A DNA stretch of 64,000 bases, taken from the NCBI GenBank assembly GCA_965198235.1, contig OZ240248.1:2464001-2528000 (forward strand), given 5' to 3'. Shown in pieces: positions 62,573 through 63,700 of the stretch. This DNA is from Candidatus Poribacteria bacterium. Lineage in GTDB: Bacteria > Poribacteria > WGA-4E > WGA-3G. The notes beneath the pieces were generated by a model. That model saw nothing but the letters and a program-made list of their open reading frames with translations. It had not been told where the DNA came from and searched no databases. Both the position numbers and the translations under genes were made by a program. The first letter of the stretch is position 1. Every line of letters starts with the position of its first letter.

Positions 62573-62599
62573 AAGTGCGAGGCACAGAGACCTCGCACT
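62573..62599. terminator. Hairpin between convergent genes
   Basis: AGTGCGAGG-loop-CCTCGCACT. Confidence 0.5.
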
Positions 62600-62664
62600 A
62601 ACACACAGATTTGAGTCTTTTAATAAAATAGAAGGCGAGTCAATCTCGCCCTGCCGACTCAGGT

Positions 62665-63039
62665 TTAGTTGGCAATTTGCGCGCTAAAAGGGCCTGCATC
62701 TGTAACTGCCTTCACGAGCGCGTCGTTCTCAACCTTGTCTTTCTCAACTTTCACCACAGCTTTATTTTCTTCCATAGAAACACTGACAACCTCAGAGACA
62801 CCGGTAACCTTTGTAAGTGCATCCTGCACCGCACTGGTACACGCGCCTCACGTCATACCGGTCACAGCCAGTGTCACTTCTTCGACTGTTGCTTCTACCG
62901 TTTGCGCTGGTGCTGCTTCTTCTACCGTTTGCGCTGGTGCTGCTTCTTCTGCCTCTTTCTTTGATGTGTCTGCACACGCGAACACAAACAGCAGTGCTGC
63001 AAAGCAGACAAATAGCATACTCGCGTTTAACTGACGCAT
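62665..63039 (-). CDS. HMA-domain lipoprotein, predicted selenoprotein (124 aa, Sec64, UxxC)
   Basis: Lipobox FVFAC; VTLAVTGMT-TGA(62848-62850)-GACTSAVQDALTKVTGVSEVVSVSMEENKAVV...LVKAVTDAGPFSAQIAN, ending TAA. Confidence 0.85.
62816..62847 (-). promoter_or_regulatory. Candidate bacterial SECIS element (copy 1)
   Basis: GUGCA-GGA-UGCAC stem-loop; the loop starts 24 nt after UGA. Confidence 0.7.
62893..62950 (-). repeat. 27-bp tandem repeat encoding EEAAPAQTV twice in the linker
   Basis: Exact duplication of TTCTACCGTTTGCGCTGGTGCTGCTTC. Confidence 0.9.
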
Positions 63040-63163
63040 AAGTTTAATCCCCTTATTTGTAGGGACGATCTCTCGATCGCGCCTCTTCGACTTTAGTTCT
63101 AATGGTTGAAACATTATCTGATTAGGCTGCAAGAGCGTTGCAACCCGTCCATATAAAAAGAAA

Positions 63164-63182
63164 GGGTGGGTAAACCCACCCC
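63164..63182 (-). terminator. Intrinsic terminator after the upstream HMA gene
   Basis: GGGTGGGT-TT-ACCCACCC hairpin followed by TTTCTTTTT on the minus strand. Confidence 0.7.
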
Positions 63183-63194
63183 TCCGATTCAGCC

Positions 63195-63590
63195 TTATTG
63201 GGCGACTTCGGCACTAAAGCCCGCGCCTTCAACTGCAGCAGTGAGATCGGCAGTCGCAACTTTACCCTTCTCAATTTTCACCACAGCTGTGTTATTCGCG
63301 TCAGAGACGCTCACCACTTCAGAGACACCGGTGACTTTACTGAGTGCATCCTGCACCGCACTGGTACACGCGCCTCACGTCATACCTGTAACATTCAGTG
63401 TTATCTCTTCAATGGCGGCTTCCTCCATGGCTTCTGCCGTGTCTTCCTTCATGTCTTCCTTCATGTCGGATTCCATTGCGGTTTCCTCTACCGTGGATTC
63501 AGACATCTCTGCCTGTTTCCCGATCATACCACAACCTACCATGAATGCAAAGGCGACAAGACAAATTAGCGATAATCTTACAATATGCAT
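63195..63590 (-). CDS. HMA-domain lipoprotein paralogue, predicted selenoprotein (131 aa, Sec72, UxxC)
   Basis: AAGGAGG RBS; lipobox MVGC; ITLNVTGMT-TGA(63375-63377)-GACTSAVQDALSKVTGVSEVVSVSDANNTAVV...LTAAVEGAGFSAEVAQ, ending TAA. Confidence 0.85.
63343..63374 (-). promoter_or_regulatory. Candidate bacterial SECIS element (copy 2)
   Basis: Identical in sequence to 62816-62847. Confidence 0.7.
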
Positions 63591-63700
63591 GGGTTAACCT
63601 CCTTGAATAATTATTTATCTATAACATTCTAACGGATATTCGTTTTCTTGGCAACATATTTTTTTTGCGAATTCAAAATTACCCACCGAATATGCAAAAT

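Follow-up and report, generated by a model that had tools for sequence, protein, structure and literature searches.

Paired genes for predicted selenocysteine-containing, lipid-anchored HMA-domain proteins in a Candidatus Poribacteria genome

The closest described relatives of the genes analysed here are small proteins with a single HMA metal-binding domain. MerP (TIGR02052; solved structures 1afi and 1osd) is a soluble periplasmic protein made of one exported HMA domain with a GMTCxxC loop, in which Cys is the first ligand. The CopZ/Atx1 chaperones (NF047957 CopZ_AFE_1862 and NF033795 CopZ_Bs; structures 6ff2, 2qif and 1cpz) have the same fold and loop, are cytoplasmic, ~65–70 aa long and without a signal peptide, use Cys and have CopA as a partner. 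Versions with selenocysteine (Sec, U) at the metal site have been reported from computational surveys, as the original prediction for this locus noted. The GOS selenoproteome table names a 'Mercuric transport protein MerP' and a UxxC 'Cation-transporting ATPase E1-E2' (PMC2398784), and the table of a 2026 review names NF041115 (UxxU, two Sec), a MerT-type protein (C/SxxU) and a cation-transporting ATPase (PMC13188914). Here we describe two genes, A and B, near the end of a 64,000 nt stretch of a Candidatus Poribacteria bacterium genome (GCA_965198235.1, contig OZ240248.1, positions 2,464,001 to 2,528,000 of the forward strand; hereafter the window). Genes A and B are almost certainly intact, genuine selenoprotein genes of this computationally known kind, and it is likely that they encode Sec-containing, lipid-anchored periplasmic binders of a soft metal, probably Cu(I).

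Like MerP, A and B each have a single, apparently exported HMA domain with the GMTCxxC-type loop, but they differ in having Sec as the first ligand, a lipoprotein anchor and a long linker. They score 47.5 and 50.4 bits against the MerP model TIGR02052, for which the cut-off is 92.55, and no mer operon was found. Among the NCBIfam models, the HMA-type selenoprotein family NF041115 ranks first or second for both proteins. It too has Sec in its metal loop, in a UxxU motif, whereas A and B have UxxC with one Sec in all copies seen, and their scores (52 and 57.9 bits) fall below its cut-off of 95. The top NCBIfam match of gene A is NF047957 (57.4 bits; B, 55.6; cut-off 85), and NF033795 gives 50.4 bits for A and 51.2 for B against a cut-off of 91. 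Fold and loop agree with those of the CopZ/Atx1 group (TM 0.86–0.93), but A and B are predicted to be exported, lipid-anchored Sec proteins, and the genome has a Cys-containing CopZ-like frame of its own. The MerT/CopZ fusion selenoprotein NF045683 is matched at 40–43 bits (cut-off 375). This family and the GOS MerP and ATPase entries resemble A and B in having Sec for the first Cys of a metal CxxC, and all are computational predictions only; the GOS ATPase, the mer-type entries and NF045683 are parts of transporters or mer-type proteins, unlike A and B. The GOS set may include sequences related to A and B.

Because A and B fall below the cut-offs of the NF041115, NF045683, MerP and CopZ models, and combine UxxC with a lipid anchor and linker and no mer or cop neighbour, we place them outside every curated family. 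The use of Sec in metal-transport and HMA proteins is already known; by comparison with these models, the A/B subfamily is an uncurated variant. No bench characterization of a Sec-containing HMA metal site was found in the parts of the literature that were searched. None of the listed titles on Poribacteria and selenocysteine concerned Sec-HMA proteins, and 'HMA domain' did not occur in the listed papers on Sec-containing selenoproteins. It had been suggested that standard annotation misses such genes, and the public entries of the family agree: they are N-terminal fragments, full-length calls with W at the TGA, or entries named 'hypothetical protein [Candidatus Poribacteria bacterium]'.

Both genes lie on the minus strand, exactly at the coordinates of the original prediction. 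Under translation table 11, gene A (63195–63590) yields 71 aa (...EEITLNVTGMT) and then meets a TGA at 63375–63377; gene B (62665–63039), read from the ATG of MRQLN, ends ...EEVTLAVTGMT at a TGA at 62848–62850. In both genes, coordinates and codons confirm that this TGA occupies the position of the first Cys of the GMTCxxC loop, as had been claimed. Reading TGA as U, the frames continue GMTUGACTSAVQDAL... for 59 (A) and 60 (B) residues to a TAA, giving proteins of 131 and 124 aa with one in-frame TGA each; the ~60 additional residues that had been foreseen do complete an HMA domain, which Pfam covers end to end. The two proteins share 51% identity. At the DNA level, A and B share a 44 nt block of 100% identity, which takes in the TGA and runs 33 nt past it, and the codons surrounding this block have diverged. 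The principal features of the pair are the following.

63195..63590, minus strand: gene A, predicted selenoprotein precursor of 131 aa, with signal peptide, lipobox, Met/Glu-rich linker, HMA domain with UxxC, and TAA
63531..63590, minus strand: gene A, predicted signal peptide and lipobox (MHIVRLSLICLVAFAFMVG-C20); the lipobox pattern fits 20/20 A-type orthologues and the Cys is invariant in alignment A4
63411..63530, minus strand: gene A, linker, residues 21 to ~60, predicted to be disordered; 13% Met across orthologues
63375..63377, minus strand: gene A, putative Sec codon TGA, codon 72, first position of UxxC
63343..63357, minus strand: gene A, hairpin G-GUGC-AGGAU-GCAC-U resembling a selenocysteine insertion sequence (SECIS), starting 17 nt past the UGA
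63216..63401, minus strand: gene A, HMA domain (PF00403, by Pfam), residues 64–125
62665..63039, minus strand: gene B, predicted selenoprotein precursor of 124 aa, with signal peptide, lipobox, Ala/Thr/Glu/Pro linker, HMA domain with UxxC, and TAA
62974..63039, minus strand: gene B, predicted signal peptide and lipobox (MRQLNASMLFVCFAALLFVFA-C22); the pattern fits 19/19 B-type orthologues
62848..62850, minus strand: gene B, putative Sec codon TGA, codon 64
62816..62830, minus strand: gene B, SECIS-like hairpin G-GUGC-AGGAU-GCAC-U
62692..62874, minus strand: gene B, HMA domain, Pfam residues 56–116; by Pfam and by a model with pLDDT 95–97 and the order beta-alpha-beta-beta-alpha-beta

The read-through product matches the Pfam HMA profile (PF00403, cut-off 24.8 bits) over almost its whole length, at 38.8 bits for A (E 1.3e-9; profile positions 1–61 of 62) and 40.4 bits for B (E 3.8e-10; positions 1–60). 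In the AF2 model of the gene B product, pLDDT is 95–97 over residues 51–124 and low in the linker. The model places strands at residues 52–60, 81–88, 93–99 and 119–122 and helices at residues 65–76 and 105–115; U64 and C67 lie where helix 1 begins. Foldseek matched this model to the HMA7 copper domain and to MerP at TM 0.81–0.92, normalized to the target; the MerP structure 1osd gave a TM of 0.92, and 1afi 47% identity. By sequence too, MerP 1afi comes closest among the solved single-domain structures (E 9.5e-11). F118, the conserved phenylalanine of GF(S)A, is invariant in A4, an alignment of 34 rows that includes other families. On the modelled structure, the domain is an HMA (ferredoxin-like) domain with its metal loop between strand 1 and helix 1.

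We are highly confident that both UGAs encode Sec. The original prediction had named the Sec machinery as a check, and the genome contains all of it: selA (592 bits), selB (348), selD (360) and tRNA-Sec (78) score above their cut-offs, and tRNA-Sec adjoins selB. The selD gene has an in-frame TGA of its own (VKCAG-U-ASKL; L012, G000 contig C1 3115227–3116150, minus strand). TGA otherwise serves as an ordinary stop, terminating 488 of the 2293 stop-to-stop frames that are 300 codons or longer, and genome-wide recoding of TGA was rejected on this count.

The position of the TGA is conserved. The family was matched in 40 of 41 genomes searched (the window's own and 40 relatives). At 20 loci within the genus (L023–L042), all 42 motifs of the form GMT-(stop or Cys)-xxC have the stop, a result well outside chance; 20 of them belong to A-type genes, 19 to B-type genes and three to separate domains of one multi-HMA protein, and the gene B of L036 was missed by the pattern search. 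Three other families of the order supplied 17 loci, 13 of which hold 18 more TGA copies and one Cys copy; the remaining four (L058, L059, L060 and L062) have no HMA site by the motif patterns and enter no count. The Cys copy is a natural orthologue of the kind that had been proposed as worth looking for (L061, GMTCGAC), and its near-identical relative L063 retains the TGA. Of 121 genomes sampled evenly across the phylum, 112 gave a match at E≤1e-10, with exactly one TGA in all but five of the matches listed. By family, the matches were 81/81 (f1), 9/9 (f2), 19/19 (f3) and 2/3 (f4), and the other four families (eight genomes) gave none at this threshold. selA was found in 12 of 13 genomes tested, including seven of the eight without the HMA family. 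Since selA is widespread and the HMA matches are restricted, the Sec trait is phylum-wide, and the HMA family is confined, at least with the query used, to one order. A profile search of genome contigs in which U was written as C, so that a Cys codon was demanded, returned only Cys-type HMA domains from many phyla, and is uninformative on Sec homologues outside the phylum.

Selection also acts on the sequence beyond the TGA. Over codons +11 to +48, the median ratio of nonsynonymous to synonymous substitution (dN/dS) is 0.17 for A (178 pairs) and 0.11 for B (168 pairs), conservation is codon-periodic, and the frame is unbroken across ~60 orthologues. The original prediction had judged sequencing error or decay unlikely for two diverged paralogues with the same TGA, and had set store by conservation past it; both points are upheld by these figures. 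None of the refuting conditions that it had named was borne out. A pseudogene reading was rejected, because the TGA codon is conserved and the downstream region is under purifying selection. As a separate observation, a gene B orthologue, P0014 (103 aa, 'hypothetical protein' at NCBI), lacks exactly ten residues, TGMTUGACTS. In G111:C167:8998-9306 the metal loop and TGA are deleted in frame, and the adjoining A-type gene of G111 retains its TGA; that P0014 corresponds to this G111 frame is a guess, on length alone.

A hairpin that could serve as a SECIS starts 17 nt past each UGA, with the consensus (G/A)GUGC-AGGNU-GCACU, an NGGNU loop and a stem of 4–5 bp. Its five core pairs are formed in 56/56 distinct sequences; pair 24–32 is GC in 51 of these, GU in four and AU in one. 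Four-fold degenerate sites in the Val and Ala codons of the stem show no variation in 39/39 genus sequences, against 0.36–0.41 identity at other four-fold sites, and synonymous divergence (dS) is halved in the hairpin segment (0.40 vs 0.99 and 0.32 vs 0.76). Several results tell against this element. RNAalifold recovered the apical hairpin from the 39 genus sequences with no compensatory pairs, and addition of the 18 distant copies to the alignment yielded one compensatory cell; the covariation score was 0.106 vs 0.099 for shuffled alignments, a value reached by 15/500 shuffles. The conserved peptide KVQxAL also dictates much of the stem, and the Cys form L061 still has the hairpin. Single-sequence folding of 69 nt round each TGA was not better than shuffles (z −0.24 and −0.75). 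Covariation alone is no proof of a SECIS.

Given the weak covariation and the peptide constraint, we sought independent support for the hairpin. The whole genome was scanned for a TGA followed at 9–24 nt by a 4 bp GC-rich stem with an NGGNU pentaloop inside a long open frame. Only ten sites were found: three are HMA genes (A, B and a third, described below) and one is a gene for an exported thioredoxin-like/TPR protein with the motif DFYTDW-U-GFC (UxxC; L147:1-942, minus strand, G000 contig C1 569886–570827). This gene matches Pfam Thioredoxin_7 and Thioredoxin_2, has the hairpin CGGC-UGGAU-GCCG 12 nt past its UGA, and is another unannotated selenoprotein gene of the genome; its type is a listed selenoprotein family in the review table (PMC13188914). 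The selD gene, which fell outside the scan by the length filter, has the hairpin GCUC-CGGGU-GAGC starting 12 nt past its UGA. A loop motif common to unrelated selenoprotein genes of one genome is what should be seen if the motif is, as these sequences suggest, a SelB-binding element.

The N-termini of A and B are consistent with export and lipidation. Each has a basic start, a hydrophobic stretch and a lipobox (FMVG-C20 in A, VFA-C22 in B), so that the lipoboxes originally proposed for both are borne out, and a lipobox pattern after PROSITE PS51257 fits 39/39 genus orthologues. The lipobox Cys is invariant in all 34 rows of A4. The genome has LspA (124 bits, cut-off 74) and a full-length Lgt-like frame, which at 98 bits is below its cut-off of 118.9. 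We infer that A and B are exported and lipidated. The linkers are both rich in Ala and Glu, in keeping with their earlier description as acidic. The A-type linker (median 38 residues, six in the shortest variants) has 13.3% Met in addition to Ala, Glu, Gly and Thr. Met is outside the ten commonest residues of the B-type linker, which is composed of Ala, Thr, Glu, Pro and Gln. Orthologue lengths of B range from 114 to 129 aa, with linkers of differing length; several B orthologues have no second copy of a 27 nt linker duplication that is present in the window.

The third Sec-HMA gene of the genome lies outside the window (L044:1495-3093, minus strand; G000 contig C1 near 1,343,000) and encodes an exported protein of 532 aa. 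This protein combines a haem-c PSCyt1 domain (CQGCH) with a WD40 propeller and, at the C terminus, an HMA domain that reads VVTGMTUGAC, and its gene has the GUGC-AGGAU-GCAC hairpin after the TGA, as in A and B. Frames of ~515–590 aa with one TGA like this one recur in most of the relatives listed. A secreted tandem-HMA protein is encoded on the minus strand of L033 (G002), and others in G009, G078, G086 and G099; in G002 and G009 it has four domains, the first three with TGA, giving three Sec per chain, and the last with Cys. Few bacterial proteins have several Sec residues.

Within the window's genome, all three signal-bearing HMA proteins (A, B and the PSCyt1–WD40–HMA protein) have U, and the two HMA proteins without a signal peptide, CopA (GMHCENC) and the CopZ-like frame (GMSCQHC), use Cys. 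We raise, tentatively, the idea that Sec is the standard first ligand of every exported HMA site in the order and that cytoplasmic HMA sites keep Cys. Read in this way, the exported set might consist of the two lipoproteins, the haem-c/WD40/HMA fusion and the secreted chains of at least three Sec-HMA domains that some species have, a grouping that we consider possible and rather doubtful. The compartment pattern would suggest a reason for the presence of Sec in exported sites.

That reason probably lies in the chemistry of the site. Selenols lose their proton already at neutral pH, and selenenylsulfides are reduced more easily than disulfides. Sec would thus keep an exported UxxC site reactive and reducible in an oxidizing compartment, where CxxC would close into a disulfide. 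In the mechanism we propose, SelB and Sec-tRNA, bound to the hairpin 17 nt past the UGA, would insert Sec at the UGA, and the Sec translocon would export the unfolded precursor. Lgt and LspA would then lipidate and cleave it at the lipobox Cys. The mature protein would be tethered in the periplasm to a membrane on a disordered linker of ~30–40 residues, with the single HMA domain at the linker end and the GMT-U-G-A-C loop offering a selenolate–thiolate pair for linear coordination of a soft metal. Its role would probably be to buffer periplasmic copper or to hand copper on, in line with the 'scavenger or chaperone' function first suggested for A and B from their sequence. Met motifs are Cu(I) ligands, and the Met-rich linker of paralogue A could provide an extra Cu(I) site.

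If the UGAs are decoded as Sec, Cu(I) is the metal we would choose, at somewhat better than even chances. Copper is favoured because a copper exporter and periplasmic cuproenzymes are present in the genome, mer genes were not found and the linker of paralogue A is Met-rich. Elsewhere in the genome there are one copper P-type ATPase CopA (576 bits), SCO1, COX2 and a multicopper-oxidase domain; MerT was not found in the genome, and the best genome match to MerA scored 383 bits, below the cut-off of 454.

The strongest competing explanation is that A and B serve not in copper trafficking but in MerP-like capture of Hg(II), or broadly of Hg, Cd, Ag or Au, in metal-rich sponge tissue. That MerP 1afi is the closest single-domain solved relative and MerP is among the top fold matches speaks for it, as do the MerP model scores, the occurrence of the stretch in sponge metagenome and metatranscriptome runs, and the filing of Sec relatives under mercury in the published tables. 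The affinity of selenolate for Hg is very high, which also counts in favour of mercury. We nevertheless consider this serious rival unlikely, because MerT was not found, MerA remained below its cut-off and there is no mer neighbour, because the CopZ-type model NF047957 scores as high as or higher than the MerP model, whose cut-off is missed, and because linker A is Met-rich.

Distinctly less probable is a role of the UxxC as a redox centre, in which the lipoproteins would be periplasmic selenol/thiol oxidoreductases acting, for example, on Cu(II), disulfides or metalloid oxyanions. Most known bacterial selenoproteins, as tabulated in the review, are UxxC or CxxU redox proteins (PMC13188914); the same genome encodes the exported thioredoxin-like UxxC selenoprotein, and MerP can itself form a disulfide (oxidized MerP, 1osd). 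Yet A and B have a canonical HMA domain with the full GMTxxxC loop and the invariant F118 and no thioredoxin fold, and the top structural matches are all metal-binding domains. Least probable is that the TGA is a true stop, leaving decayed or truncated genes or a short lipopeptide with a separate peptide started at an internal GTG: the table 11 frames end there, public gene calls are truncated and TGA is a normal stop in the genome, but the TGA is held at the same codon in the 42 genus motifs and 18 distant copies, purifying selection and an open frame continue past it, a product of the internal GTG would be without strand 1 and the metal loop, and the genome has the full Sec machinery.

The neighbourhood gives no pointer to a metal. 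As the original prediction had it, no metal ATPase or mer gene is present at the window's end. The next 12 kb has none either, and no other metal gene lies in these two stretches. The neighbours encode a GT4 glycosyltransferase, PhyH dioxygenases, a GIY-YIG/UvrC-motif protein, Laminin_G_3 proteins and an IS605 OrfB-type frame. With five neighbour proteins as queries, tblastn matched genus loci only and none of the 17 distant loci. In other families the gene pair lies among unrelated housekeeping genes with no metal link, and Pfam found no metal gene in 33 flanking frames of six distant loci, except the second HMA gene of the pair in L061. Two further frames were observed near the pair. Just 5′ of gene A (window 63701–64051, minus strand, running past the window; L046:3701-4051) is a 116 aa frame rich in Cys (CPKCYYEG..., CRCG), which Pfam does not match and which has a tblastn match in 7/19 genus loci, where flanks are short. 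About 3 kb past the window end, an IS605 OrfB/TnpB-type frame (OrfB_IS605 with a Cas12f1-like TNB domain; L046:6990-8093, plus strand) sits among PhyH, Laminin_G_3 and GFO/IDH/MocA genes.

Further features in and around the two genes are as follows.

63626..63654, minus strand: promoter-like site TTGCCA-17-TAGAAT 5′ of gene A, a consensus match only
63160..63185, minus strand: terminator-like hairpin and T run directly 3′ of gene A
62891..62944, minus strand: two 27 nt tandem copies in the gene B linker (EEAAPAQTV twice)
62632..62652, minus strand: terminator-like hairpin 3′ of gene B, with a second one at 62574–62599

A and B are probably separate transcription units, given the terminator-like hairpin 3′ of each and the promoter-like site 5′ of A. 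The stretch is present in sponge metagenome and metatranscriptome runs, and one study provides four sponge metatranscriptome runs whose contigs cover A and B. One RNA-library contig of 1424 nt spans the whole of gene A with zero differences. Among the RNA-library pieces listed, none bridges the gene B TGA by 31 nt on both sides, and RNA contigs break at 62842–62844, the start of the 44 nt block common to gene A. In a contig of run X1, one 27 nt copy of the gene B linker is absent ('left out 27' at 62892). Word depth over A and B is in the hundreds to thousands, and is ~6 just upstream (runs X6 and X7). These depths fit strong transcription; the contigs are no proof of it and are silent on translation past the UGA.

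Apart from the doubts about the hairpin, several considerations weigh against reading A and B as Sec-containing, lipid-anchored Cu(I) binders. Expression cannot be ranked from contig depths, and the RNA libraries may contain carried-over DNA. The conserved neighbours include no metal gene, and synteny is limited to the genus. Sec insertion, lipidation and metal binding are predictions from sequence and modelled structure. The closest single-domain solved structure is MerP 1afi, which would allow Hg(II) or other soft metals. Finally, the compartment pattern has exported Cys exceptions in the last domain of the G002 and G009 multi-HMA proteins and in the L061 lipoprotein.

Almost all sampled genomes of one order, in a phylum of sponge symbionts, have a Sec-HMA site, which is duplicated, under purifying selection and represented in sponge RNA libraries. 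The family provides a natural system for studying the effect of selenium on a Cu/Hg-type CxxC site, with a Cys orthologue and cytoplasmic Cys paralogues as built-in controls. It also calls for an annotation correction, since the genes are now truncated, misread with Trp or called hypothetical. If the compartment pattern is true, this would be the first case in which the choice of Sec or Cys at one metal site tracks the cell compartment, and the Sec-HMA proteins would form a dedicated, abundant periplasmic 'selenium shield' or soft-metal relay in sponge symbionts; the metal tolerance or copper supply of the sponge holobiont would then depend in part on its selenium supply. More broadly, these genes may connect selenium with the handling of metals in sponges.

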